DNA of 64,000 nucleotides from IMG/VR virus record IMGVR_UViG_3300031951_000113, positions 4,915-68,914 of that record. One strand, 5' to 3'. The notes under the pieces are model-generated. The model had not been told where the DNA came from and ran no database searches. It was given only the letters and a program-made list of their open reading frames with translations. Below are positions 4,729 to 43,978 of the stretch, in pieces. Each line of letters opens with the position of its first letter. Within the stretch, counting starts at the first letter, position 1. The stretch comes from a virus. A program made the translations under genes and the position numbers.

Positions 4729-7700
4729 ATGATTATTGAAGATGAGGAGACTAGCGAACTAGAAACTTTGGTGCCTCCAAGTTGGGACGAGGTAGAGGCT
4801 GACGAAGAGTATAAGGCCTTAAGTCCATGGAAAAAACAGATGGCGCTGGGTAACTGGGTTACAGCTGTAAACAAATACGCTAAGACTTCTGGTGAGTATA
4901 ATGACGACCCTCAGGCAGGGAAAGCAGTGCAAAGCTTTTTCAAAAGCAAATACGACGAGCTGAACAAAGACTTAGACCTTGCGGTAGAGTCTGGGCAATA
5001 CGAAGACAATTTGTGGGGCGGGGCTAAGCGCTTACTAGACAGGGCTACACTTGGAGCCTCACAAATCGGCCCTAACGCTATCTCAATGGCCAACCGACTC
5101 GGGGAATTCGCGGTTGAAGCTCCGGGCGCTATGGGGCAGCTTTTAGATAGTGTGGGCCTTAATAAGCTTTCCCCAAGCGAAAAGGTGCAGCAGGAAGGGT
5201 TTCTTAAAAGCTATCGGGACTTTAGTGCCCCAGTTAGAGAAACTTTCAGACAGACTGCCGATTACTATAAAGGCAAATCTAACGAAATGGCGGAAGCTGG
5301 AGCCGCGCTTGGCGGCGGGTTTGTGGGAGAAGCCGTGCAAGCAGCAGTGCCTGCGGCTGCTGAGGCGGTTCAAGATATGGCTCTAGCTGTAGGGTCTGGT
5401 GGGGCTTCTATACCTCAAACTTTGGGGCGGCCTATGGCCGCTGCTATGCGGTCTCTAAACGTTAGCACAGTTCTTTCAGGAATTAGGTCTTCGGTGGCTA
5501 CTTTAGACGAGGCGGAGTCGCAGTACATGAAAGAAGACCCCTCTCTTACTAGAGAGCAGGCTCGTCTTAAAGCTATGCCGGAGGCTTTAACTTCCGGGGC
5601 GTCTACAGCTCTTATAACTCGCCTTGGTGGTTTTACAGGTATTGAAAGTGTGTTGCTAAAAGGAGGCCCAAAAAGCCTACGCGGTAAAGTTTGGGAAGTC
5701 CTCAAAGAAGCTAGTGGCGAAGGTTTGGAGGAAGCTGCTGACCAATCTCTGCAAGATCTTTCAGAGCGGTTCTATCGAAACCCAGAAAAAGCTTGGTCGG
5801 ACACATATAAAGAACTAGCTATGGCGTACTCGTTGGGGGCAGTTCTTGGCGGCGGGTTCTCTGCTGCTAGCCAAACATTAAACTCAGCTGCTGACAAAGC
5901 GAAAGACGCTGGGGCTCCCCAAACAGCCGCCGCTTTGCGAGAACGAGTAGAAAAAGAAGCGGCGATTAAAACTACTCAGCTTTTCGGAGACTCTGAGTCT
6001 TCTTCCGAAGCAGACGCACTCGCCGATGAGCTGCTTGGTGAAATGGAGGGAGAAGACGAAGTTGAAGGCCCGTCAACACAAGACGCCCAGAACGCCTACG
6101 ACGAGAAACCCGAGCAAAAGTTCACTCCGATTAACGAGGGTGTAATATCTCAGGACACTACCAAGCAAGATCAGCAGACATCGGAGCCGACTGTAACGAC
6201 TCCAGAGCCGACTGTAACGACTCCAGAACCGACTGTAACGACTCCCCCCACTTTGCGTGAGTCGGTAATTGCCTCTGGAATCCCTGAAGAAGCGGCCGAC
6301 TCTTACATCTCCAACCTGCAAGCCGAAGGCATATCCGACGAGCAAATTCAAGAGATGGCCGACAATGGTCGCGCCCTTCGAGAAGAGACTGCTAAAAGAA
6401 ATGAAGCCGAGGCCCAGGCTAAAAGCGATTTAGCGCGGCGAGCCAGAGCGGGAGACCCAGAAGCGCGAGCTCAATTAGAGCGCGAACGCGGCGTTAATGT
6501 AACGACTCCCTCCCCTACCCCTGTAGCAGAAACTGCAACACCCCCTACAGTCACAGAAATTTCCCCACAGCAAACTACCCCCCAAAACATCGAAGGAGGT
6601 GATTCTAATGAGTTGCGGATGCGGAACCAAGAAGAAGGGCAAGGGCGGACGGAAGCACTAAACGCCGATTCTGGAGCTGGAGCCGAGGGAGCTGTGGCTA
6701 CACCACTTCCCGCCGAAGCTCCAGCTCCGCTTTCCGAAACTCCGGTTGCAAAACTTCAACAGAAGCGTGCAGAATCAAATCCTGAGGAGTTTGAAGACCT
6801 AGACCCCGAAACCCTGCTATCTGACCTCCCTGCAACGGAGGCGGTCGACTTACTGCGACAAGTTGGTAGCACCTATGAGGCCCCTGCGGTTGAAGGTGAC
6901 GAGACTTTTGCGGACTACATTGAGCGAACTGGTGTGTCAGTATACGATTTCGACACGCGTCCGACTGTACTAAACGAGCAAGAACGGAGGTATGTCCAAC
7001 AAGGTAAAGACCCATTTGAGGGGCTCAAAGACCTAGCGGCTGGGCGTGCTAAACCTGAGGACTTTTCGCCTGCGGTGCAGGCTGTGTCGCAGGACACTCC
7101 TGAAGAAGCCGAGAGGCAGAAAAAAGCTAAGGAGACCGAGGAGTTTTACGCTAAGGTCGGCCAAGAGTCTGAGCAGAACGAAGCTAACGCTGCAGGTAAG
7201 CCTATAACGGCAGAACAAATTGTTAAAGCTCCAGTTGAACTCAAAGGCGTTAAGGGGGAGGTAAGCGGAAAAAGTCTGCCTGTTCGACAAGTCATCACTG
7301 ACGAAGTAGACGATCGCGGAGTTGCAATAACAAAAGTTGTCCCTGGTTTTGTCAACGACGCAAACACTATGGCTGAGGTACTGAGCCAAGATAAAGGCGT
7401 CAACCGAGTCTACGTGCCAAAAGAAGACGTAGCTAATATAGACCCAGAAGACATTTTTATTAAGTACGATGAGAGCGGGAATCCGTACGTTGTTGCTGCT
7501 AGGCATGGAAACTACGGGGTAGTTTATTCCGGCACGGGCCTTACTCAAAATGGGGAATCGCTCGCCGATCTCCACGAGCCTACTCGACAAAAGAACAGTC
7601 AAGCTCAGATACAGGGTAAAAGGGCTAAAAAGTTAGCTAAGCAAGCGGGGGTTTCAGTAGACGAAGTCGCTATTCCCGAGATGACCGACAAGTTTACTGA

Positions 7701-10700
7701 ACGGGTAAACAACGCGCCTATTTCTAAACAAGAAACAGAGAAGCCTGAGGCAGTAGCCAAAACGTTAAAAGCCATACAAGACAAAGCTATGGCGCTGTCT
7801 GGTGAAGCCGTTACAACTGATAACGGTTTAGTTGTAACTATTGATGCCGAACTAGCCGATAAAATCGGAGTTGCAGCTACTAATTTGTACATGGCCCGTT
7901 TGCGTGGGGTGGACCGGAAGGGCAAGTTCAAGGACGCTTCTGGAGTTGTAGCAGACATCAAAAAGAAAGTTGTCGCGAAACTTAAAAAGCGACCAGGAGC
8001 CAGATCTGGCGTTTCGTTAGATCAAAATGTGGGGGACGGTAGTTCTACCGTTGGCGACTTGATGGGCCAGACGGATCAGAACTTAGACAATATGGGGTAC
8101 GCGGACGTGCCGCTAGATACTCAGGTATCGCAAAATGCAGACGCTCCCACTCAGGGCCCTACGACCACTACAAACAATGCACCTGCAGGAGCGCCAGAGC
8201 TTAACGAGTATGATAGTATTGCTGCTAAGGCTATGTCCGAGGCTGAAAAGGAGCTGGGGGATTTAGACTTAAAGAACGGCACAAAGAATTTGGCGGTCTG
8301 GAAAGAAACTCTCGCCATGCTTAATGGCGGTAAGAAGCGGAAAGACCTCACCCCAACACGCGCAAAGATTGTCAAAGAGATGGACGCACGGATGCGCGAA
8401 AGAATGCGCGATCTTATTTCTCAGCAAACGGTAGAAGTTGACACTAAAAAAGCTAAAAGCGTTTTATCTGCGGAGCCTCAAGCCGTTTTAAATCAGGAAG
8501 AGAAGCGCACTCTAATCAAGACAAACGTAGATAAAATTATAGATTGGAACGGCGGTGCTACCCAAGAAAAGTTTGACATTAAACGTGTGCTTTTGGGGAT
8601 AGCTGAAGACCCCAAGCAACCTCAACTTGTAAAGATTTTTGCAAAGTTTATCGGGTCTTCAAACGTAGATTTCTCTGGAGTGTCGTTTGAAACTCTTGCC
8701 AGCCTGCAAAAAGACAAGAACTGGGCGGGACTCTATACTAGCGGGGACAGCTCAAGCACTGGTAAAATTCAGGTCAACGTAGGTAGCTTTCATCGCGGGT
8801 CGATAGGGCAGACAATTGTTCACGAAGCCCTACACCATGTAGCTTTCCACAAGCTCCGCCCTTCGTACAACAGAACTGGAGTTGAACGCGAAGCGTACCG
8901 AGACCTTACAAAGATTCTTACCCACATTCGCCGTCAGGTGCTAGAGCCAGAAAAAGGGCAAACGCTTTCTCAAGCAGCTCGCAAGATGTTTAGCCGAGGC
9001 GACGACATGTTCTATGGGTTGTCAGACCTTGACGAGTTGTTTACGGAAACGCTTACGAACACGCGCTTTTCGGTATGGATGAGCACTCAAGCTCCTTTGC
9101 CGGACATCAAGCTTAAAAACACAAACATTTTTAAGAACCTCTACGAGCAAGTAAAGCAGCTGTTTAAAAATCTTATTGGCGGTCAAAATGTCCGACCCGA
9201 CAGTTTGCTTAGTCAAGCGATGGACAACATCTTGGCGTTGGCTCAAGACCCTCAAGATGACGCTAAAATTCGCGACTACCAACAACGAGCTACGGGAGGC
9301 GAGAAAAAAACAGCGGAGTCTAAATCAAAACAGGCTAAACCTGTTAAAAGTCGCTTGGAGACCGAAGCAGAGAAAATTAAAACTGGGAGAAATTACTGGG
9401 TAACTCCCTACGGTAAGGTCATTGATGTTTTTGAAGAAGCCACTTCAAGAGATGATGAAGGGGCTTCTGCGGCTTCGCATGGTCTTTACATTAAACAATG
9501 GGTAGCAGACAGGCTTCGAAATTACACTCCGGATAAAGATGAAAAAGGCATGGCCGTTATTATCGAGTCAAAAGTCAAAGACTTGGTACGAGAGCAGCCC
9601 TCTCTTAAAAACGAAACCACTGATTCCGAAATAGAAGACCAGTTTCAAGAACAGGTGTCTATGGCGGAGGTTTACGGCACGGAGCCACCAGATCGTGACG
9701 AGTTTTTCTCTCAAGCAAAAAAAGCCGCTGGGCCATCCCCACTGGCGTATGTACAAGCGGCTCAGGAATCAGGGTGGATTCGTATAACTTCTGACGCTTC
9801 CGTTGCAAAGATTCGTGGTGCGCGAACCGGAGCGGCTTTTGGGGGAAACATCCATGTAGAAACCTACGGTCCTGCCCTTTCTCTCGATGGGAAATCGTTT
9901 ATTTCAGCGCTAACAAAAGCCAAAGATGGAGTTCGTGTCGTTTCGCAAGGAGCGGTTCAGAAAAAACAAGCGGAGCGGCCTACTCAGATTTTAGCGTTTA
10001 GACAAATGTTCGGAAGAGAAGAAGGGTACATGGCTTACAAAGGCAGCTTAAAAGATGTCCAAGACTCTAGAGTAGCTGCTGTAGAAGAAATGGTTCAAAA
10101 CGCCATCGGATCTATACGCACTCCGGTAAAATCTGAGAACCTTAACGGGCATCCGGCGCAAGCCAGAATGGGTGAGTCGGGGGAGCTGGAAATTGTATAC
10201 GATCCAGAAGCAATAGCTATTGAGACCGAAGGTCTTAACGACGAGGAAGCCGCTAAAACTATATCTAAGCTGCTTGGTCACGAGAACCTCCACATCGCCG
10301 GAATGATAAATGACTATTCGACTCCTGATAGCAAGGGTCGCATTGGACGTCAAAAAATTGAAGCGTTTCACGACGAAGTGATGACGGACGAAATGCGACA
10401 GGAGACAGCTGACGCTTACGTTCGCAGGTTCGACGGCATGACTGACGCCGAGTACCTAGAAAGAAGGAACAACTTTTTGTCGGATAAAGTAGCCGTGGCG
10501 GGCGAATACAAGCGCATGTTCACAGAGCGTTATCTTACTGGAGAGTCTTACGAAGACTCCCTTAAAACCCTAGAGAATAAAACAGGGGATAAGTTTTCTG
10601 ATATAGTTCGCAGCATAGCAGACTATCTTATGGGGCGCATTCGTATGGTGCTGGCTAGATACCAGCTAACCAAAGACCCTAGGCTCGCTGCCGTAATTCT

Positions 10701-13700
10701 TAATGACAGCCAAATGTTACAGCGCCTTAACTCTGCAACAGGGTCGCTGGGCGACAATGTCACAGAGATAAGGTCAGAAACACTCAACGCCTCTAAAGTA
10801 AACTCCCAGAAATTAGCAGATATTCGGCTCGATGTTAGAGGGAGTAAGCCTCACTATTCTGGGGAACGCGCAGGGCTTTGGTACCCCAAGATAGTAGACG
10901 GGAAGATAACAAATATAGATGCAATTCCGGATGACCCATCTTTGAGATTTGTACACAACGAAGGGATGCTAGGGAGCGATGTGTATACTGCGGGGGAATT
11001 TAAAAATTTCTTATATAGCAGAAGTGAAAGCCTTAGATTTTTTAATAGAAACACATACTCAGTCTACAAAGTCGGTGACCCTGTCTCTCAAGAACTGGCA
11101 GACGAGATCGGCATAGACCCGTTGAACGCCTCTAAAGCACAAATCCGCCGAATGAAAAGGAACTCTGCTGGATGGAAAGCTAGCGGTTGGTTTGGACAGG
11201 GGCTTATGGATCAGAAAGTATTTAACAGGATAGCCCAACAGAACGCGGAAATTCGAGGCGCTAATTATAGGGTTCAAGAGACGGCTAAAAAGTTCCAACG
11301 TCTTGTGAAGGAGCACAACCCTAACCCAACAACGCTCCAAGAAGCTCTGGGCAGCACCGACAACGTGTTAACAGACGCTCAATACGACAGCTGGAAAAAG
11401 ATGGTTAAAGCGGCGAAAAGCGAAACAGATCTGGCAAAACGTCAGTCGGCTATAGCGGCTGCGGATAACTACCGGATTAGTCAAGTGCAAGCCAACAATG
11501 TACAAAGGAAAGCCGATAGACTATCTGCTCTAAACCAACTACCACAAGACTTGAGGGATGTGGTAGAAACTATGCGACAGCACATTGACCAGCTTAGCAA
11601 AACAATGATTTCAGAAGGCATAGTAGGCAAGAATCTACAAGCCACTCTTGGGGCTAACATGGAAGTATATTTGAACAGGTCGTACGAAGTGTTCGATAAC
11701 CCTGAATGGGCTAACTTTATACTAACTGATAATTCGGAAGATTCGCAAAGGATACGTAACAATGCGGCTACAATGTTTAGGGCTCAGCTTGTCGCGGAAG
11801 AAGCTCGAAAAATTCGCAGAAACGCCCGCATTAACAATCAAACTGTGCCTACAAGACAGCAAGCTCTAGCAGCAGCTCAAGCTACAGTTGCCGACACCGA
11901 CGTTCAAAATCTTATGGAAGATTACCTTAGGGTTGGTGACGATAGCGCAGCAGACATGTTTTTAGGAGGCAGGGTGCCAGGAAAAAAAGACACGTCTATA
12001 ATCACTTTGCGGGGCCAAGTCCCCAAAGAGCTCCGCGAGCTTATGGGTGAGTACAAAGACGTCGGGGTTAACTACGCCAAGTCTTATCTAAAGATGGCGA
12101 GCTTTATAGCCCACCATAATTTCCAACAAGATTTTTTAGATATGGGGCTTACTAGAAGCACCCCTTTCCTTTGGAAAGAAGGTGTTAGCCCGGGTAGACG
12201 CCCGCTGGGGTGGGTGAAAGTGTACTCAAGCATGTCTGACTCCCCCAACCCAAATCCTATGGCAGATGTGTACGGGCCTCCTATAATTGGAGAGGCTTTT
12301 ACCGAGCTGAATAAGACGTACGAACAAAAGCCGATAATGCAATGGATTACAGGGCTAACCGGAATTGCAATGGCGTCTAAAACTATTTATAACCCGCCAC
12401 AAACATACGTTAGAAACTTTGCGGGCAACGGACTGTTGATGTTAGCCCAAGGGTACGTAACAAACGACATATCTAAACTAGGTTTCTTTAAGCGTTTTGG
12501 CAACTCAATGTATACTACAGGAGAAAGACTTGTGGGAATGCAGCCTGAGCGTTCTAATCAAGTAGTAGACTATATCGAAAGGCTGGTAAAGCTGGGCGTT
12601 ATGGGTGACAACGTTAAAGCCACAGTCATTAAGGATCTTACGTCTGTAATTTTTGACAGGGACCCTAAAAACGCTTTTAACGAAAAGCTTTCTTCCCTGA
12701 TGAGCCTTGCAAAAAAAGGTAACGATAGGCTTGTAGACGCCTACTCAGCTGGGGATGATTTTTGGAAGATTTTGGCTTTTGAATCAGAACGAGCTACCTT
12801 TGAAAAAGCTTACCCGAAGGCAACTCCTGAAGCCTTGGACAGAATGGCGGCTGACAGAGTCAGGGCGGTACTTCCGACGTATAGCGAGATCCCCAAGTTT
12901 GTAAAAGACATAGTCAAAGGGCAGCCGTACTTAGCTCCGTATATATCGTGGACTAGCGAAATTATACGTACAAGTCTAAACACACTTAAGACTGGGTGGG
13001 ACGATGTCAAAAGCGGTAACCCAGTATTGCAGAAATCTGGGTTAGTGCGTATGGGCTCTATGCTTGTAGCGCAGGGGCTTCTTGTGGCGGCGGCTGGGAC
13101 AATCCGTTCATTTGCACAACTGGACGATGATGACGAAGACGCCTTGCGAAGATTCCTGCCTGAATGGCAGGTTAACGCTTTAGTAGCTCTTACAGGTAAA
13201 ACAAAAGACGGTAAGGTTTCTTTTTGGGACCTAAGCTACCTTAACCCGTTTGATGTGATACAAGAGCCTTTCACTGCCATGACAAACGAGTACAAGCAGG
13301 GCGGTTCTGGTTGGGATGTGGCGGCGGCTGGGCTGGACAAGGCTATGGCTCCTTGGACGGGGGAGCAATTGTTCTTTGGGGCCGTTGCGGACGTTGCGCG
13401 TGGATACACTAAAGAAGGGTATCCGCTGTACGAAAAAGCAGATTCAGACTGGAACAACTTTAAAAAAGGGGCTGATAGGATTTGGTCAGCTGTTAAGCCT
13501 GGAGCTGTCAATTTTGCGGAGCGTATAGTCAAAGCTTATAAAGGGGATGTGTCTCCTAGCGGGAAGGTCTACAACATTGAAGACGAGCTGAAGGGGGCTA
13601 TCCTGGGCCAGAAACCGAGTGAAGTAGACTTGCTGCAAGTTTTCCAGAACAAAAAACTTGGAGCATTTAACCGAATGCTAGAGTCGTCTACAAATCTTGC

Positions 13701-14046
13701 TACGAAAGAGTACCGTACAAGGGGGACAGCCGACCTAGATAAAATAAAAGATGACTATAGGCAATCTAACGACTCTAGGATGAAAGCGTTTGTAGAGATT
13801 CGCAAAGACGTCGACGCTTTAATTATGATGGGCGTCCCTAAACACAAAGTCTACGGAGCTATGCAGGCTCGCGGGGTTAGCAACGACGACATCAATCAAA
13901 TAGCTGGCGGTAAATACGTGCGCAGGTTTCCTGGGAACGAGGCGTTAGAAAACGCTGTGGGGACCCCTAATTTTAGAGCGAGGATTCAGGCTTTAAGAGA
14001 TGCGAAAGACTCTTACCCGCAAGTCCAGTCGATTATTTCGGAATGA
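4729..14046 (+). CDS. large polyvalent internal virion protein with two zincin-like metallopeptidase motifs
   Basis: 3105 aa; Gly/Ala membrane-like N-region; HEALH..DELFTE (nt 8821) and HENLH..GEY (nt 10279); helical C-terminal region typical of large ejection proteins. Confidence 0.75.
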   Translation: MIIEDEETSELETLVPPSWDEVEADEEYKALSPWKKQMALGNWVTAVNKYAKTSGEYNDDPQAGKAVQSFFKSKYDELNKDLDLAVESGQYEDNLWGGAKRLLDRATLGASQIGPNAISMANRLGEFAVEAPGAMGQLLDSVGLNKLSPSEKVQQEGFLKSYRDFSAPVRETFRQTADYYKGKSNEMAEAGAALGGGFVGEAVQAAVPAAAEAVQDMALAVGSGGASIPQTLGRPMAAAMRSLNVSTVLSGIRSSVATLDEAESQYMKEDPSLTREQARLKAMPEALTSGASTALITRLGGFTGIESVLLKGGPKSLRGKVWEVLKEASGEGLEEAADQSLQDLSERFYRNPEKAWSDTYKELAMAYSLGAVLGGGFSAASQTLNSAADKAKDAGAPQTAAALRERVEKEAAIKTTQLFGDSESSSEADALADELLGEMEGEDEVEGPSTQDAQNAYDEKPEQKFTPINEGVISQDTTKQDQQTSEPTVTTPEPTVTTPEPTVTTPPTLRESVIASGIPEEAADSYISNLQAEGISDEQIQEMADNGRALREETAKRNEAEAQAKSDLARRARAGDPEARAQLERERGVNVTTPSPTPVAETATPPTVTEISPQQTTPQNIEGGDSNELRMRNQEEGQGRTEALNADSGAGAEGAVATPLPAEAPAPLSETPVAKLQQKRAESNPEEFEDLDPETLLSDLPATEAVDLLRQVGSTYEAPAVEGDETFADYIERTGVSVYDFDTRPTVLNEQERRYVQQGKDPFEGLKDLAAGRAKPEDFSPAVQAVSQDTPEEAERQKKAKETEEFYAKVGQESEQNEANAAGKPITAEQIVKAPVELKGVKGEVSGKSLPVRQVITDEVDDRGVAITKVVPGFVNDANTMAEVLSQDKGVNRVYVPKEDVANIDPEDIFIKYDESGNPYVVAARHGNYGVVYSGTGLTQNGESLADLHEPTRQKNSQAQIQGKRAKKLAKQAGVSVDEVAIPEMTDKFTERVNNAPISKQETEKPEAVAKTLKAIQDKAMALSGEAVTTDNGLVVTIDAELADKIGVAATNLYMARLRGVDRKGKFKDASGVVADIKKKVVAKLKKRPGARSGVSLDQNVGDGSSTVGDLMGQTDQNLDNMGYADVPLDTQVSQNADAPTQGPTTTTNNAPAGAPELNEYDSIAAKAMSEAEKELGDLDLKNGTKNLAVWKETLAMLNGGKKRKDLTPTRAKIVKEMDARMRERMRDLISQQTVEVDTKKAKSVLSAEPQAVLNQEEKRTLIKTNVDKIIDWNGGATQEKFDIKRVLLGIAEDPKQPQLVKIFAKFIGSSNVDFSGVSFETLASLQKDKNWAGLYTSGDSSSTGKIQVNVGSFHRGSIGQTIVHEALHHVAFHKLRPSYNRTGVEREAYRDLTKILTHIRRQVLEPEKGQTLSQAARKMFSRGDDMFYGLSDLDELFTETLTNTRFSVWMSTQAPLPDIKLKNTNIFKNLYEQVKQLFKNLIGGQNVRPDSLLSQAMDNILALAQDPQDDAKIRDYQQRATGGEKKTAESKSKQAKPVKSRLETEAEKIKTGRNYWVTPYGKVIDVFEEATSRDDEGASAASHGLYIKQWVADRLRNYTPDKDEKGMAVIIESKVKDLVREQPSLKNETTDSEIEDQFQEQVSMAEVYGTEPPDRDEFFSQAKKAAGPSPLAYVQAAQESGWIRITSDASVAKIRGARTGAAFGGNIHVETYGPALSLDGKSFISALTKAKDGVRVVSQGAVQKKQAERPTQILAFRQMFGREEGYMAYKGSLKDVQDSRVAAVEEMVQNAIGSIRTPVKSENLNGHPAQARMGESGELEIVYDPEAIAIETEGLNDEEAAKTISKLLGHENLHIAGMINDYSTPDSKGRIGRQKIEAFHDEVMTDEMRQETADAYVRRFDGMTDAEYLERRNNFLSDKVAVAGEYKRMFTERYLTGESYEDSLKTLENKTGDKFSDIVRSIADYLMGRIRMVLARYQLTKDPRLAAVILNDSQMLQRLNSATGSLGDNVTEIRSETLNASKVNSQKLADIRLDVRGSKPHYSGERAGLWYPKIVDGKITNIDAIPDDPSLRFVHNEGMLGSDVYTAGEFKNFLYSRSESLRFFNRNTYSVYKVGDPVSQELADEIGIDPLNASKAQIRRMKRNSAGWKASGWFGQGLMDQKVFNRIAQQNAEIRGANYRVQETAKKFQRLVKEHNPNPTTLQEALGSTDNVLTDAQYDSWKKMVKAAKSETDLAKRQSAIAAADNYRISQVQANNVQRKADRLSALNQLPQDLRDVVETMRQHIDQLSKTMISEGIVGKNLQATLGANMEVYLNRSYEVFDNPEWANFILTDNSEDSQRIRNNAATMFRAQLVAEEARKIRRNARINNQTVPTRQQALAAAQATVADTDVQNLMEDYLRVGDDSAADMFLGGRVPGKKDTSIITLRGQVPKELRELMGEYKDVGVNYAKSYLKMASFIAHHNFQQDFLDMGLTRSTPFLWKEGVSPGRRPLGWVKVYSSMSDSPNPNPMADVYGPPIIGEAFTELNKTYEQKPIMQWITGLTGIAMASKTIYNPPQTYVRNFAGNGLLMLAQGYVTNDISKLGFFKRFGNSMYTTGERLVGMQPERSNQVVDYIERLVKLGVMGDNVKATVIKDLTSVIFDRDPKNAFNEKLSSLMSLAKKGNDRLVDAYSAGDDFWKILAFESERATFEKAYPKATPEALDRMAADRVRAVLPTYSEIPKFVKDIVKGQPYLAPYISWTSEIIRTSLNTLKTGWDDVKSGNPVLQKSGLVRMGSMLVAQGLLVAAAGTIRSFAQLDDDDEDALRRFLPEWQVNALVALTGKTKDGKVSFWDLSYLNPFDVIQEPFTAMTNEYKQGGSGWDVAAAGLDKAMAPWTGEQLFFGAVADVARGYTKEGYPLYEKADSDWNNFKKGADRIWSAVKPGAVNFAERIVKAYKGDVSPSGKVYNIEDELKGAILGQKPSEVDLLQVFQNKKLGAFNRMLESSTNLATKEYRTRGTADLDKIKDDYRQSNDSRMKAFVEIRKDVDALIMMGVPKHKVYGAMQARGVSNDDINQIAGGKYVRRFPGNEALENAVGTPNFRARIQALRDAKDSYPQVQSIISE
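6184..6246 (+). repeat. 3 x 21-bp in-frame tandem repeat (EPTVTTP)
   Basis: gagccgactgtaacgactcca x2 plus gaaccgactgtaacgactccc; partial copy near 6498. Confidence 0.95.
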
Positions 14047-29880: not shown

Positions 29881-29909
29881 TTGACAGGGTTGCAGGGTAA
29901 TGACATACT
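29881..29909 (+). promoter_or_regulatory. sigma70-type promoter for terS-like gene
   Basis: TTGACA-17-CATACT, 13 nt before ATG 29923. Confidence 0.6.
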
Positions 29910-29922
29910 CAAGTCGTTACTT

Positions 29923-30450
29923 ATGCCTGCAGCACTTGACCGAAATTGGGATGCTATACGCATCGAATTCTCACATGGGATGTCAATCCCTTTACTTGCA
30001 GTGAAATACGATGTGCCTGAAGGGACTCTTAAAGCTCGTTCAGCTAGGGAAAAATGGATGGAGATGCGGCCAGAGACCCATATAACCGAGGTTGCATCTC
30101 ATGCAACAAAGGTGCAACCGACCATTTTGGAGACCCAAAAACAGGCCGCAAAGCAGGTCGGAAAGACATGGGCGGAGCGTGGTGAGGCGTATCGTAGTAT
30201 GATGTTCGAGAAAACCTCTGAACTTATGCAACAGGCTACGCTCGCTCCTCCCAAGAACTGGAAAGATGCGGATATTGTGGATAAGATGGCTCGCAGGGCG
30301 GCAGGGTTGGACAATCTCGAAACACAGGTAAATACAATAATAGGCATTGGTAGTCTTGAGGACGGGCCTGTTAAGGCTGATTTCGAGGGTGATTTTGTCC
30401 AGAGTGTGTCATTACTCGACAGCCCTGCAGAGGGTGAGCCTACGGGTTAG
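29923..30450 (+). CDS. putative terminase small subunit (N-terminal HTH)
   Basis: WDAIRIEF..G.S...LAVKYDV..GTLK.RS.REKW HTH typical of TerS; lone + strand gene in the early arm. Confidence 0.6.
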   Translation: MPAALDRNWDAIRIEFSHGMSIPLLAVKYDVPEGTLKARSAREKWMEMRPETHITEVASHATKVQPTILETQKQAAKQVGKTWAERGEAYRSMMFEKTSELMQQATLAPPKNWKDADIVDKMARRAAGLDNLETQVNTIIGIGSLEDGPVKADFEGDFVQSVSLLDSPAEGEPTG

Positions 30451-30710
30451 CAACCCGTCAACTGAGGCCAAGTGGACTCTATCTCAGCGATTCTGGCCAC
30501 AGCTTTAGCTACCGCTTGTTCGCGGAGCCAGCCAGCTCGTGAGAGATCAGCTTTGAACAAGGCGATCTCCATGCGGAGACGCACCTCGCTTGGGTCAGGC
30601 AGCTTGGACTTTGGGATGTATTCGGCTCGTTCACTGCGATAGAGCCTGCATATCTCTTCAATCTGAGGGTAATTAGAGCGGACAGATCCGCTGGGCATAT
30701 AGGTTTTCAT
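30447..30710 (-). CDS. hypothetical protein
   Basis: 87-aa ORF convergent with the terS-like gene. Confidence 0.55.
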   Translation of the reverse strand: MKTYMPSGSVRSNYPQIEEICRLYRSERAEYIPKSKLPDPSEVRLRMEIALFKADLSRAGWLREQAVAKAVARIAEIESTWPQLTGC

Positions 30711-30720
30711 AAGACTACAA

Positions 30721-30742
30721 CCCCTCCCCCGAAGGGGAGAGG
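30721..30742 (-). terminator. cUUCGg hairpin (terminator or processing site)
   Basis: Minus strand cctctcccc-ttcg-ggggagggg; poor U-tract. Confidence 0.4.
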
Positions 30743-30763
30743 CTAGGTGTCTGACGAAATCCG

Positions 30764-31183
30764 TTAGGATTGTGGGGCCACAAGTGCCTTGAGTTCAGCA
30801 AGCTCCGCTTGGAGTGCGGCAATCACGGCATTCTTTTCGGCGACATCCGACGCAGCAATGAATTGCTGTTCAGGGCGGACATAACGAGTCGTCATAGAAG
30901 TGCCTTTGGCACTTGCGTCGGTGTAATCTGGAACGAACCCATTGCTTCTAGCAATAGACACAATCTGCTCGTGCTTAACCCAGCGAACATCAGCTTCACC
31001 GGAGAGGATTTCATTGACCTTATAGGTCAACTCTTTGCCCTTGAACCCAGATTCCCGAAGGGAAGCACGGATTTCACTTGCGGTTTGATTGCCATTGTAT
31101 GCAATCCTTGAGCCGAGGTCTTTGCCTTTAGCAGAAAGACGATTAGTGATGGGGCCGACATTAGCTAGTTCTTTAGTGATCAT
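30764..31183 (-). CDS. hypothetical protein, probable first early gene
   Basis: 139 aa with C-terminal coiled coil; follows the long non-coding region. Confidence 0.7.
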   Translation of the reverse strand: MITKELANVGPITNRLSAKGKDLGSRIAYNGNQTASEIRASLRESGFKGKELTYKVNEILSGEADVRWVKHEQIVSIARSNGFVPDYTDASAKGTSMTTRYVRPEQQFIAASDVAEKNAVIAALQAELAELKALVAPQS

Positions 31184-31199
31184 AACTTTACTCCTGATA

Positions 31200-31810
31200 A
31201 TGGAATCCTCCTACTTGACTTGGCTCCAACTCTCCAACGGAGAGCGGTGCATAGGAGAACTCCAGACAGGAGTTGTGCAGGGTGTATTGATATTGAGGCA
31301 AACTGCCGTAAATACACTTCAGAAAACTTCTTACTGCACAACTCAAGTGATGAGTTTACATTTCCCATACTTTAATCCGGCGTGGGGTGCTCGCTGATAT
31401 GTTCCACATATCTTCCGATTTCGGCGAGGCTTTCTGTTCTGCGAAACATACTTACCCTGATCGCTACGGCATGGTCACGGCTTAATATAGATTAAATCTA
31501 TAAAGTCTTTCGACGCTACCAGTCCCATCATTTCCAGAGCGGACTAACCCTTTCGGGTTTCTCTGTTCCTTCGATCCTATCCATTCTCTTTTCCGACTTT
31601 TCGCTTGCAAGGTGCATCAGTTCTTCCATCCACATCATCTACTTCCGTTTGGGATCTATCCTGATGTCTTGCTTCGAGTTTGCCGAGGCATTCAGACCGA
31701 TTCGATTGTCGGCAGGGCTTCCATCCTGCACTGCAAAGAGCGATGCCATTCGACCGAACCGATCGACGGCAAACCAACCCCCCAACCCTCAGCGAAGCTG
31801 AGGGCCTGCG
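31200..31810 (-). ncRNA. candidate large structured RNA or leader
   Basis: More than 10 nested inverted repeats; two GAAA tetraloops on the minus strand; no credible ORF. Confidence 0.45.
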
Positions 31811-32014
31811 TGCGCGGGCCGCGCTACGCGGCGTGCATCATGCGCGCACACACCACGCGGGTAGGGGGGTGGGGCCGTGGCGCAGGATCGAGCACTATAC
31901 ATAGATAGGTTGAAAAATTTTTTTCCGAAAAAGCCTGCAACCCCGCTCGGGAACAAATCAAAGCATCCGCGTAAAAATGGAACAAAACTTCCCGCTCGGG
32001 AGGGCGGCAAAACC

Positions 32015-32312
32015 AAGTGGTGATGTGGTGAGGGTTGGTGAAGGCATTTTTGAGCAGGCATCACCACACTTAAGTCGTTGATAATTTTTATACTTATATT
32101 TAAAATGGTGATGGTGGTGATGGTTTATAATAAAAAGGGGGGTATAATAGAGAAATAGAGAAAGCCCACACGCCTGACGGACGGAACAGCGAAAACAGCG
32201 CCGGAAGCACGGTATAGCCAAAAACCATCACCACCATCACCATTTGGGGTCATCCCTTTCGCCCTGTTGCCCTTACATTGGTGGGGGATGGTTTGGTGGG
32301 GTGATGGTTGCC
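32015..32312. repeat. GGTGATGG repeats with perfect 24-bp inverted repeat; putative replication origin
   Basis: aaatggtgatggtggtgatggttt (32103-32126) and aaaccatcaccaccatcaccattt (32222-32245); AT-rich flank; downstream of primase-helicase. Confidence 0.6.
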
Positions 32313-32465
32313 CCGCAACCTTGGATACTATGATGCGTTTAAGCGTATATGTCGAGTTTATGCGCTGAACGCTATTCGCGAATGGCGATTAGTGCCTAGT
32401 CTGCTTAGAAACTGGGCTGCAAGTCTAGCGTGACTTGAACTACTAGGCTTTTCCTAACAGTTGCC

Positions 32466-34628
32466 CTACGGCTTGGAGATTATCCAGAGAGTCTTCCGGG
32501 CCCTGCCTTCCCTGCGACCCAGCCACGGGGCTGCATTGCTTTTGTGAACTTGAGCCAACCATACGCCCATTTGCGCTGCACTCGCCCTGGTAGCAAAGAA
32601 GTCCTTGCCGATTCGGAGTAGGTCTCCTGAGGTGCCCTCCCACACCTTCGCCCCATCTATGAACAGGATGCTGTCCTTCAGGTGTCGCAGGGTGTCAATG
32701 TCTTCTCGGAGGTGGGTGGCTGCTGCGAGACTCTGGCTGTGAGCCAGGATTTCTGGGTGGTGGAAGGACTTCACTCCATAGCGGCTTCGTGATGACGATG
32801 CCATGATGCAGGGTGGCGGGGTCCACTGGGAGAGCCACCTTAGAAAGAACGGCAGTTCTGCATTGACCTGTGCCTCGATGACGTGGTTAGGTGGGAAACT
32901 TGGATACCATTCTCCGAGTTTAAACAGCATGAGTTTATCTGTGATTGAATTGTCCGTGGTCGGGACGATCGAGAGAGACTCTTCGTCCGTGTTACAGGTG
33001 ACGACTACCCTACCCTGCCACGGAAGCTTCGTAGCATCTTGGAACTTTGGATGGTAAAGGATCTCGGTTTGAGCGACGACCTTTTTAACGTTAGCTGAGA
33101 AAGTCTTTCGGCTAGTCCCGTCGATAGTGGCCATACCGTCGTCAACGCTCCACACTCCGACTTCGACTAGCTCCTTATTGAAGTCCCCTCCCCCTAGCAG
33201 GTATCCGCTCGCATCGCTATGTCCCCCTGAAATCTGGCCCATGATGAACGAGGATAGAAAGGTCTTACCCTGTCCCGCGCCTCCGGCGATGAACACCATT
33301 TGACCCGAAAGCAGCCGTCCCGCTCTGCCCGATTCCCAGAATCTTTTTAACCAAGCTAAGAAGTAGTCTCTTTGGCCGACTCCGTTTTCATCCACGGCGC
33401 TATCCCAGATACCAGGCTCCAGCAAAAACTTCTTGAGCCAGGGGAAATCCCCATCCTCTGCAGCGGGCTCCATCATTTTGCGTTGGCTGGTGTTTAGGTA
33501 CTTGGCTCCATTGAAGTCTAGAATTTCGACCGGATTGTAGACGAACGGCGCTACGCACTGCACCCGCTTGGTCTGTTGGATTGCGACCATAGCCTTATCT
33601 ACTTCGCTTGCGGTGTCCTTGTTACCGTTCTTGCTGGAAAGCCTGTACAGGACTTTCAACCGACGGCCCATCTCCTCGCTGACGAGTCGGCACCATAGGT
33701 CGTTGTCTTTGACCCAATAGGCGCGTCCGTCATACCAGAAGTCTGCTGCGGCAGCTCCGGTGCGCTCGGCTTCGTATTCCGAAACAAACTTTTTACCCAG
33801 TATCTCTACCCACGGCACAAAAGACTTACCTGCGCGGTCCGAGAAACATATAACCCCGTGCTCTCCCATGACTGCACCGACACGGTCAATCCCGTCGTCG
33901 ATCCAGAACAGCGGCACGCGTAGACCTTCTCTAATGTCGCCCTGCAGCTTTCCTGGGAACTGTTTCTCGATCTCGGCTGCGATGCGATCGTATGGGATTG
34001 AAGTATTGTTATCCGATACCTTCTTGGCTTTAAGCGCGGATTCGGCCAGCCAATGATGGACCACATTACATGAGATCGGAAGGGAACCTGGAATCTGCTC
34101 CCAGTCGCTACCGATCTCGAACACCTGGTTTGACTTTAAGGAGGTCTCGTCAAAATGTGGCAGCAGTTTCTTTACACGCAGTTCTTTTGCTGCGTAAGCC
34201 ATGAAAGACTCGTAGAGACCCTTGTTGTCCAACATCAGCGGCTCTTCGAACTCCCACACCACACGAATCCCCCCGCTGAATGTTTGAGAGATTCCTGTGG
34301 GCTCCAGCCCAGCCGGGCAGTTGTTAGCGAGGATCTGCTTCGCGTCGGCGATGGGAACTACCGAGTCATAGTCGGCAATAATGCCGTGTTGGTACTTGAC
34401 CGGATTTGTTTCCGAAACTCTTAGGGATGGGGTGAGCCCCTCTGCAAAAGTATAGAAGACCCAGTCGGTGTTTGGGTCGGAGCACCAAACCCGATAAGCT
34501 TCTTTAGTCGCCCCCGACTGGAGTCCTGGGCGCGGCGGGATACTGGCTTCCCATGGCTTGCCTCCGATGTCGAAGGCGTCGTTGCTCCTGAGGTTCTTGA
34601 TTGCGAGATAGGTCGTCTGTGTTGGCAT
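32466..34628 (-). CDS. primase-helicase (AEP-like N-term, SF3/DUF5906-like C-term)
   Basis: IIADYD, TFSGG.RVVW; Walker A GGAGQGKT, VDD, TCN. Confidence 0.8.
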   Translation of the reverse strand: MPTQTTYLAIKNLRSNDAFDIGGKPWEASIPPRPGLQSGATKEAYRVWCSDPNTDWVFYTFAEGLTPSLRVSETNPVKYQHGIIADYDSVVPIADAKQILANNCPAGLEPTGISQTFSGGIRVVWEFEEPLMLDNKGLYESFMAYAAKELRVKKLLPHFDETSLKSNQVFEIGSDWEQIPGSLPISCNVVHHWLAESALKAKKVSDNNTSIPYDRIAAEIEKQFPGKLQGDIREGLRVPLFWIDDGIDRVGAVMGEHGVICFSDRAGKSFVPWVEILGKKFVSEYEAERTGAAAADFWYDGRAYWVKDNDLWCRLVSEEMGRRLKVLYRLSSKNGNKDTASEVDKAMVAIQQTKRVQCVAPFVYNPVEILDFNGAKYLNTSQRKMMEPAAEDGDFPWLKKFLLEPGIWDSAVDENGVGQRDYFLAWLKRFWESGRAGRLLSGQMVFIAGGAGQGKTFLSSFIMGQISGGHSDASGYLLGGGDFNKELVEVGVWSVDDGMATIDGTSRKTFSANVKKVVAQTEILYHPKFQDATKLPWQGRVVVTCNTDEESLSIVPTTDNSITDKLMLFKLGEWYPSFPPNHVIEAQVNAELPFFLRWLSQWTPPPCIMASSSRSRYGVKSFHHPEILAHSQSLAAATHLREDIDTLRHLKDSILFIDGAKVWEGTSGDLLRIGKDFFATRASAAQMGVWLAQVHKSNAAPWLGRREGRARKTLWIISKP

Positions 34629-43673: not shown

Positions 43674-43929
43674 AAAATTTTCTGTGCTAGTATTGACACC
43701 ACATGACAAAAAATGTTCAACGGTTTTTTTGACCGCTACCGCGATTAAAACCCCTAGTAACTCGTTGAAAGTATAGACGGACTAATGACGCAAAATACCA
43801 GAAAATTGGCGAAAAAACGGTACTTTATAACATCCTAGTGACATTCAATAATATACCACTTTTTATTTTAAATGTTTGATTTTGATATTTTTAACTTAGG
43901 TGTATTTCTAGGATATTACCCCAGTATAA

Positions 43930-43978
43930 ACGGTTTTGTAAACCGTCGGTCCTCGGTTCGAATCCGAGTGTCGGCTCC
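43930..43978 (+). mobile_element. attP core: 3' half of tRNA-Thr(UGU)
   Basis: Anticodon arm acggt-tttgtaa-accgt, T arm ctcgg-ttcgaat-ccgag, acceptor strand tgtcggc; no 5' half upstream. Confidence 0.8.

Follow-up and report, generated by a model that had tools for sequence, protein, structure and literature searches.

The closest analogues of the RNA described here are presumably the leader of the lambda N message (promoter pL followed by nutL, a long RNase III hairpin and the N gene) and the expression platforms of riboswitches. Our RNA lies in a 64,000-nt stretch of viral DNA (the window), which comprises bases 4915-68914 of IMG/VR virus record IMGVR_UViG_3300031951_000113 (68.9 kb, rated complete). 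It is a non-coding leader of about 705 nt on the minus strand (31184-31888, with a putative 5' end), and it is followed by the gene of a 139-residue protein of an unnamed family (30764-31183, minus strand). The original prediction had been a large phage RNA at 31200-31810; the element exceeds that interval on both sides, extending from about 31888 to 31184, up to the start codon of the protein gene. A comparable gap between genes was found in five relative lineages, here called L002, L007, L008, L010 and L012. With a probability of about 55%, we consider the leader to be a cis-acting switch on translation of the 139-residue protein gene.

The resemblance to the lambda pL leader has four aspects. 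Both leaders are promoter-proximal, non-coding and placed before a small phage gene; the early single-stranded boxA of lambda has a candidate counterpart here, seen by eye; both have a long irregular hairpin before the start codon, the surroundings of which pair with the ribosome-binding site; and in both cases leader and protein co-vary among related phages. A long irregular double-stranded hairpin beside the start codon, which is a feature of RNase III processing sites, is present and kept in four lineages. However, our leader is about three times longer, no boxB-type hairpin was recognized in it, and the 139-residue protein was not recognized as an arginine-rich N-like protein. Moreover, the unit is short and a convergent gene follows, so there is no obvious target for long-range antitermination. 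With riboswitches and protein-controlled operators the leader shares its cis position and the use of one strand by both the stem of a junction domain and the helix that hides the ribosome-binding-like motif. It occupies a 5' untranslated position on the same strand as the open reading frame (ORF) with no terminator between them. The ribosome-binding region has a conserved pairing, and in folding models an alternative structure would free the motif at a cost of 0.1-5.0 kcal/mol. The candidate sensor would be the junction domain, which is predicted in the window, L007, L008 and L012. Unlike riboswitches, the leader contains no known aptamer (0 of 4227 Rfam families matched) and is several times longer than usual.

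Two other systems merit comparison. The large RNAs GOLLD and ROOL likewise span hundreds of nucleotides, are phage-borne, occur in lake metagenomes and have GNRA-capped hairpins and multi-way junctions. However, our leader did not match their Rfam models, is continuous with an ORF rather than free-standing, lacks excess folding energy in its centre and has a narrow known distribution of five lineages. The part of the original prediction that proposed a large non-coding RNA thus stands insofar as the region is conserved, structured and present in RNA libraries, but a free-standing RNA of the GOLLD/ROOL kind was not shown, because the leader runs without a terminator into the start codon and its best helix pairs the ribosome-binding-like motif. 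Type III toxin-antitoxin loci likewise combine a promoter, a structured RNA and a small protein gene in a compact module on a mobile element. In contrast to them, the window leader has no tandem repeats (none over 31100-31950), an 82-nt repeat of L008 lying in its 5' insert only; there is no terminator between RNA and gene, and no PADLOC toxin family was matched.

For the region immediately upstream of the start codon we constructed a covariance model, R1 (97 positions and 30 pairs over 31277-31181, with the window, L007 and L008 as seeds), which was searched against the window plus 15 loci (209,641 bases). R1 scored 110.8, 101.6 and 87.8 bits on its seeds and 43.3 bits (E 2.9e-11) on L012, which was outside the seed. 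The other matches were weak (E 0.72 or worse), and no convincing second copy was present in the window. In the four-lineage alignment 94.9% of the cells were paired, versus 40-52% when the partners were slid, and both sides had changed in 18 of the 30 pairs. Neither the paired percentage nor the covariation score was reached by any of 500 shuffles. The cells consisted of 102 Watson-Crick, nine G.U, two A.C and four other combinations plus three gaps. Most of this covariation resides in an irregular terminal hairpin of 23 pairs (31201-31264, minus strand; R1 helices 2 and 3), which has a U-rich triloop and, on its 3' side, an internal loop (CCAAG) that is conserved. Sixteen of its 23 pairs changed on both sides among the four lineages, with 96-100% of the cells paired. 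The terminal hairpin is nested inside a seven-pair helix (R1 helix 1) in which the ribosome-binding-like motif CAGGAG (31191-31196, 13 nt before the start codon) pairs with an anti-ribosome-binding strand (31267-31273). Two of these seven pairs changed on both sides and 85.7% of the cells were paired.

The anti-ribosome-binding strand has a second potential partner. It overlaps by 4 nt the 3' strand of an 11-bp stem (31270-31280/31334-31344) that closes the junction domain (31270-31344, minus strand), within which are two inner hairpins with 3-nt loops, that of the apical one being GUU. The closing stem has 11 bp in the window and L007, 9 bp in L008 and 14 bp in L012, the stems of L008 and L012 being unrelated in sequence. 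Since one strand serves both the helix with the motif and the end of the long junction stem, the two folds are mutually exclusive. An additional hairpin (31340-31356, minus strand; weaker in L007) competes with the first four to five pairs of the 11-bp stem. In the minimum free energy (MFE) fold the junction stem is short, this hairpin is formed and the motif is paired; in the motif-open fold the hairpin is absent. When the six motif bases were forced open, the junction stem attained its full length in all four lineages (11, 11, 9 and 14 bp in the window, L007, L008 and L012, respectively). The MFE and motif-open energies were -76.7 and -72.0 kcal/mol in the window, -68.3 and -63.3 in L007, -69.9 and -68.9 in L008, and -92.5 and -92.4 in L012. 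Opening thus cost 4.7, 5.0, 1.0 and 0.1 kcal/mol, respectively, by MFE and 5.0, 5.2, 1.9 and 1.3 kcal/mol over the ensemble. The original prediction had proposed switching from hairpins that overlap the 11-bp stem, and this proposal was borne out by alternative folds in four of four lineages, which are moreover tied to the start of the 139-residue protein gene.

These folds suggest how the leader might operate. In the off state the junction stem would be short and the ribosome-binding-like motif paired, and in the on state the junction stem would be full length and the motif free. The switch would be set by whatever stabilizes the junction domain, be it a protein (possibly the 139-residue protein itself), a small ligand or co-transcriptional folding. 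It is also possible that the leader affects message stability or processing. The leader consists of three parts, a 5' domain closed by a C-tract and a G-tract, a purine-rich centre and the very stable 180-nt 3' domain. The minus-strand unit proceeds from an A/T tract plus TATAGT through the leader to the 139-residue protein gene, a hairpin and an 87-residue ORF.

The upstream boundary was set by comparison of the six lineages, window included. In all of them the A/T tract, TATAGT and the first ~45 nt downstream are conserved; there follow ~600-780 nt without a conserved ORF and then a ~140-residue protein gene of one family. The A/T tract (31912-31933, minus strand), possibly an UP-like element, is nearly invariant in the window, L002, L007, L008, L010 and L012. 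It lies upstream of the -10-like hexamer TATAGT (31894-31899, minus strand), which is kept in six of six lineages. Judged by its conservation and position, TATAGT would be the promoter of the unit and would place the RNA start near 31888. The leader region is non-coding, as the original prediction had claimed. No minus-strand ORF longer than 66 residues lies wholly inside it (the longest frames have 36-66), and a plus-strand frame of 98 residues (31612-31908) runs past 31810. The conclusion follows because L007 breaks the frames: the 62-residue frame (31180-31368) has four 1-nt indels there and the 36-residue frame a stop codon. A terminator scan found no site between the RNA and the 139-residue protein gene, the only one on that strand being near the 5' end (31804-31779).

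The RNA matches no described family. At gathering score, the comparison of the whole window with the 4227 families of Rfam 15 gave only a tRNA (43920-43976). At E of 10 or less over 31000-32600 there were four matches, all with E of at least 3 and 14-18 bits versus gathering scores of 42-83, and the L002 leader gave seven matches, all with E of at least 0.15. This comparison with covariance models agrees with the earlier description of the RNA as uncharacterised. The hairpins listed with that description were all found in the sequence at their places when the coordinates were re-derived. One of its pairings, tttgccg with cggcaaa (31679-31685 with 31767-31773), must be abandoned, since the relatives keep a competing local hairpin (31745-31770).

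The 5' domain and the centre show conservation of a different sort. A C-tract (31859-31874, minus strand) and a G-tract (31774-31788, minus strand) form the 5' and 3' strands of a long-range helix that closes the 5' domain and is found in the MFE folds of six of six lineages as well as in the consensus folds. Between the tracts is a GC-rich hypervariable insert (31789-31858, minus strand), the most divergent part between the window and L007 and 50-230 nt long in relatives. It contains the hairpin 31786-31804 and a run of alternating purines and pyrimidines. The window, L008 and L010 all have a hairpin immediately 5' of the G-tract, with stems that are unrelated to one another. The purine-pyrimidine run consists of ~15 alternating bases (GT/GC) at about 31839-31855, at the start of the transcribed region, and is similar in L002, L007 and L012. 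Within its GC-rich insert L008 has an 82-nt tandem repeat (7966-8125; 2.0 copies, 93% matches), and L010 contains related repeats. After the G-tract comes the conserved local hairpin 31745-31770 (minus strand), in which nine of nine pairs are kept in the window and L007, and which persists in L008 with an altered top. Next is a single-stranded motif (31731-31742, minus strand), a candidate that by eye resembles a boxA element, although the boxA of the host may differ from the consensus; by eye, similar motifs are seen at matching places in L007 and L012 and, less closely, in L008. A hairpin at 31712-31729 (minus strand) has two compensated pairs, 166-181 and 167-180, which changed on both sides.

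The purine-rich central part (31361-31711, minus strand) contains small hairpins (31546-31559, 31505-31514, 31486-31502, 31390-31428 and 31364-31387) and motifs in common with L008. The hairpins at 31546-31559 and 31505-31514 have GAAA caps, and a three-way junction is formed at 31390-31428. The consensus fold of the window and L007 has 204 pairs; 17 of these had substitutions on both sides, 12 had one on a single side without loss of pairing, and one was lost to a gap. When one sequence was folded alone and the other scored on it, there were 10-14 doubly changed pairs versus 0-5 with slid partners, on either strand. Among local pairs of the centre (a count that spans a wider stretch and takes in hairpins 31745-31770 and 31712-31729), 10 of 106 changed on both sides, in six of 19 helices, versus 0-1 in slid controls. 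Homologues of the predicted RNA thus showed covariation in both the 3' element and the centre. Comparison of the sequences supports hairpins 31712-31729, 31486-31502 and 31364-31387 and part of 31390-31428. At corresponding positions L008 has sequence motifs in common, as well as hairpins whose stems have changed completely; the centres of L008, L012 and L002 were compared by eye only.

The RNA is probably on the minus strand, as judged from the orientation of the gene, the promoter-like site, the folding energy of the 3' domain (-65.3 kcal/mol versus -55.3 on the plus strand, an advantage of 10 kcal/mol), the nine G.U versus two A.C cells of the 3' element when read for the minus strand, and the hairpin caps, which are GAAA on the minus strand. 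The stretch was found whole in 14 DNA runs, mostly from freshwater or lakes and possibly including the source, and in part in six metatranscriptome runs, of which we examined four, from four studies. In all four RNA libraries contigs of 151-307 nt lay on 31370-31766; no contig lay on 31184-31369 or 31767-31890, and flanking genes had none in three of the four. One run also had contigs at 30390-30607 and 32307-32476, and in one run hairpin 31486-31502 is of the L007 type. The gaps between contigs are evidence of neither processing nor silence, the runs having been picked for the stretch. The metatranscriptome coverage called for with the original prediction was thus seen over 31370-31766.

Folding energy was compared with that of shuffled sequences. 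The 611 nt of the original prediction folded on the minus strand at -203 kcal/mol, which is better than shuffles (z -4.11, versus z -3.10 for the plus strand; 20 shuffles each), but the signal is not spread over 600 nt. It comes from 31181-31360 (z -5.94, with 0 of 200 shuffles as stable) and weakly from 31661-31890 (z -2.2), whereas five coding control stretches of the minus strand gave z of -1.9 to +0.6. The last 180 nt before the start codon were unusually stable in five of five lineages (z -5.9, -3.6, -4.6, -3.8 and -5.7), among them L002, though its sequence fails model R1. Hence, ~180 nt, about a quarter of the leader, is thermodynamically exceptional, and the remainder is to be judged from relatives.

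A number of observations weigh against a translational switch. The centre of the leader (31361-31660) is not unusually stable (z -0.24, with 69 of 200 shuffles as stable), and the hairpin-dense structure of ~600 nt originally proposed therefore fails in this part. Of its 106 predicted pairs 81 never vary, and most of the drawn structure is a prediction. The sequences that yielded the consensus structures were also those on which the pairs were counted, only four to six lineages are comparable, and the window and L007 are 92% alike. L002 matches neither R1 nor the leader sequence. The ensemble cost of opening the motif exceeds the phage median (1.13 kcal/mol, range 0.02-11.6, over 17 other genes) in the window and L007 and is ordinary in L008 and L012. 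CAGGAG may not function as a ribosome-binding site in the host, because most genes of the phage lack such a purine motif and the 139-residue protein gene is an exception (the motif listing covered 12 minus-strand gene starts, such as 28998, 26631, 24015 and 34628). TATAGT has no good -35 element and is not listed by a sigma-70 consensus scan, and the start near 31888 is putative. Over the whole leader the G.U asymmetry of the window and L007 is nil (13 versus 13), becoming weakly favorable to the minus strand when L008 is added (30 versus 17). Finally, the RNA runs were picked because they contain the stretch, and their contigs give neither strand nor ends, with DNA carry-over possible.

The 139-residue protein has 16 close homologues, and a profile search gave 208 clusters at E of 0.001 or less; the ten clusters that we looked up were all metagenomic "hypothetical proteins". 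Relative to the window protein, identity is 99% in L007, 54% in L008 and 28% in L012, and L002 encodes a weak family member. No family was found for the protein in Pfam, PHROG, PADLOC or NCBIfam (PADLOC gave none for five of five proteins of the family tested), and there was no match in Atlas, the PDB sequences or the Foldseek PDB and viral libraries. A wide search with VIA-align gave a best Z of 4.9 and no significant fold match. The AlphaFold2 (AF2) model has a mean predicted local distance difference test (pLDDT) score of 87.6 and predicts a folded alpha/beta domain plus a long helix, in the order beta-hairpin, three helices, second beta-hairpin and long C-terminal helix.

Leader and protein gene travel together. 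The exchangeable cassette (30458-31842, minus strand) comprises most of the leader, the 139-residue protein gene and the 87-residue ORF. Over 32600-31842 the window and L012 agree at 94% of positions, and over 30457-29873 at 97%, yet the 1106 nt of L012 in between are unrelated. L002 has the same two break points, again with unrelated sequence between them, and flanks that are 69-78% identical. In L007, the backbone has diverged (58-78% identity; 35-47 of 60 positions identical where aligned) and the cassette is common (88-98% identity; 43-59 of 60). In pairwise comparisons of the six segments only the window with L007 and L008 with L010 aligned inside the cassette. Because like backbones carry different cassettes and unlike backbones carry the same cassette, leader and gene are evidently exchanged together as one unit between related phages.

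This exchange bears on an alternative in which the leader is a stable trans-acting RNA (or yields a processed core) that forms a matched pair with the 139-residue protein, the pairing at the start codon being only a side feature. Such a pair might act as a specificity module, whether in immunity against related phages, in defence or in counter-defence. RNA and protein are always exchanged together. Between the window and L007 the protein is 99% identical, against differences of 8-13% in the leader, where there is compensation. The motifs of the centre are conserved in the window, L007 and L008 without thermodynamic structure, as expected of protein-binding sites; the CCAAG internal loop is kept in four lineages with proteins just 28% identical; and the contigs of four of four RNA-library runs lie on the centre only. 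That last pattern, however, could arise equally well if parts that are very stable or rich in GC were poorly recovered. No terminator-like site separates the RNA from the ORF, the protein has no recognized RNA-binding family or fold, and complementarity to the leader elsewhere in the window never exceeds 12 nt, which is chance level and provides no antisense target. We regard a matched pair as less probable than the cis-acting switch, yet the joint exchange of RNA and protein makes it a serious alternative. About as probable is a more ambitious version, that the RNA and the ~140-residue protein co-evolve as a novel type of RNA-protein machine, which phages would exchange as a specificity cassette. 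Such a machine might exclude related phages, serve counter-defence or control the neighbouring origin. The RNA would then have a role beyond its own message, and the 3' switch would do no more than adjust how much of the partner protein is made.

The neighbouring origin raises another alternative, that the leader serves replication, its transcript priming or activating an origin (by an R-loop at the G-tract) or its hairpins acting in single-stranded DNA. An origin-like region (32013-32309) is located just upstream of the promoter-like site. At least five direct iterons of the GGTGATGGT type are present there, together with inverted copies. It also has a perfect 24-nt inverted repeat (arms 32103-32126 and 32222-32245, with 95 nt between) with A/T-rich DNA alongside. 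The leader directly adjoins the GGTGATGG iterons and the inverted repeat, downstream of a primase-helicase-like gene; the G-tract follows the promoter-like site; and genes inserted in L008 and L010 have not separated the leader from the iterons and the promoter-like site. The origin-like repeat is identical in L007, L010 and L012, and in L002 the iteron unit becomes GGTGGTGG, changing together with the primase lineage. An origin role is made less likely because the iterons of L012 are identical while its leader is unrelated, and thus the two do not co-vary. Moreover, transcription heads away from the iterons, and the G.U pairs and the 10 kcal/mol strand asymmetry suit RNA rather than DNA, whether duplex or single-stranded. 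The helix with the best support takes in the start region of the gene, and the cassette is missing from marine relatives that have the same replication genes. We thus consider this role improbable.

Still less credible is a decoy that absorbs a host RNA-binding regulator of the CsrA type by means of many unpaired GGA motifs. GGA is modestly enriched in four of five leaders, the count being over all GGA regardless of loop position: 22 versus 14.0 +/- 2.7 expected in the window, 20 versus 15.0 in L007, 14 versus 8.4 in L008 and 19 versus 13.0 in L012. UCC is depleted in the window (7 versus 11.4), and one covarying hairpin keeps a GGA loop in the window and L007. However, the enrichment reaches a z of only about 2-3, L002 shows none (14 versus 12.4), and the GGA density is far below that of known sponges. 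It is likewise hard to credit that part of the leader is translated and that an upstream ORF ending on the start codon delivers ribosomes by coupling, for although a +1-frame ORF ends at a UGA overlapping the AUG (62 codons in the window, 58 or 114 in L007, 43 with a GUG start in L008), its frames differ by 1-nt indels and its peptide is not conserved, L012 has no stop in any frame from 30 nt upstream to 12 nt downstream of the AUG, the overlap follows from a conserved Met-Ile start, substitutions are compensatory in stems rather than three-periodic, and few stops are expected anyway in U-poor sequence.

The setting of the proposed switch is as follows. The leader sits in an ORF-poor gap of 1282 bp (31184-32465) flanked on one side by the primase-helicase-like gene (32466-34628, minus strand; DUF5906), with genes for DNA polymerase A, a helicase-nuclease and an integrase further along on the minus strand. 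On the other side, the 139-residue protein gene is directly followed by a GC-rich hairpin with a UUCG-type loop (30721-30742, minus strand), which the terminator scan did not call a terminator, and by the 87-residue ORF (30447-30710, minus strand). In L002 (10405-10430), too, the ~140-residue protein gene is followed by a GC-rich hairpin of this sort, likewise with a UUCG-type loop, though the cassettes are otherwise unrelated in sequence. A conserved convergent gene lies on the plus strand (29881-30450), where its base skews agree with coding, and has weak matches to helix-turn-helix (HTH), DNA-binding or small-terminase-like proteins (E 5e-5 to 4e-3). Its stop codon abuts that of the 87-residue ORF (30447/30450). 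Because this HTH-like gene follows immediately, the leader, the 139-residue protein gene and the 87-residue ORF form a short unit and not the head of a long operon, and the leader, which had been taken for the head of the early transcript, does not head a long one. The HTH-like protein may be a regulator of the leader region.

Just upstream of the A/T tract are two identical 11-nt near-palindromes, CCCGCTCGGGA (31942-31952 and 31991-32001, 49 nt apart), which may serve as operators or may form short terminator hairpins for the genes upstream. Several small genes, one with a CxxC zinc-ribbon-like pattern, are inserted between the primase-like gene and the iterons in L008 (6201-7355) and L010 (between 2574 and 5469). 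The tRNA-like stretch at 43920-43976 lies by the integrase gene and scored 29.4 bits, just above the gathering score; ARAGORN found no tRNA there, and the stretch may be a phage attachment site that copies a tRNA end. A 3105-residue ORF (4729-14046, plus strand) matched no Pfam family, and its C-terminal third matches a PHROG virion structural protein family (E 4e-31). N4-like hairpin promoters, considered because of this large protein, were rejected, as it matches the virion structural family only.

The relatives were obtained with the primase-like protein as query, which gave four IMG/VR loci and 15 metagenome loci. L007 is 92% identical to the window over 31150-31940, and the L010 contig ends inside the gap. 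Distant marine relatives (33-39% primase identity) have a gap of 528 bp or none and lack the protein family. Among 50,697 GenBank phages there were no close DNA relatives, and tblastn with the window protein, P0036 and P0022 against these phages likewise gave none. IMG/VR scans with the 139-residue protein, alignments A5 and A12, and P0064 gave no relatives; a scan with P0014 gave two loci, which were rejected as an unrelated ATPase-like ORF. A pattern scan for the A/T tract matched only the L002 contig, and the two matches of a hairpin pattern scan, both in coding DNA, were judged to be chance. No prophage copy was found in a collection of 185,579 species genomes queried with the primase-like protein and A5. 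The supplementary tables of one survey hold 10,006 candidate structured RNAs from IMG/VR 3.0 (PMC10690425), and the leader may already be among the candidates listed there.

Long structured leaders have been little explored in phages. The present leader offers a testable RNA switch before an unnamed protein family with at least 208 environmental sequence clusters, and the clean exchange of the cassette between near-identical backbones points to a function under diversifying selection. If RNA and protein do act together, they would constitute a new phage RNA-protein module. Otherwise, the locus would be a well-documented case of a bistable leader that controls translation in freshwater phages known only from uncultured material.

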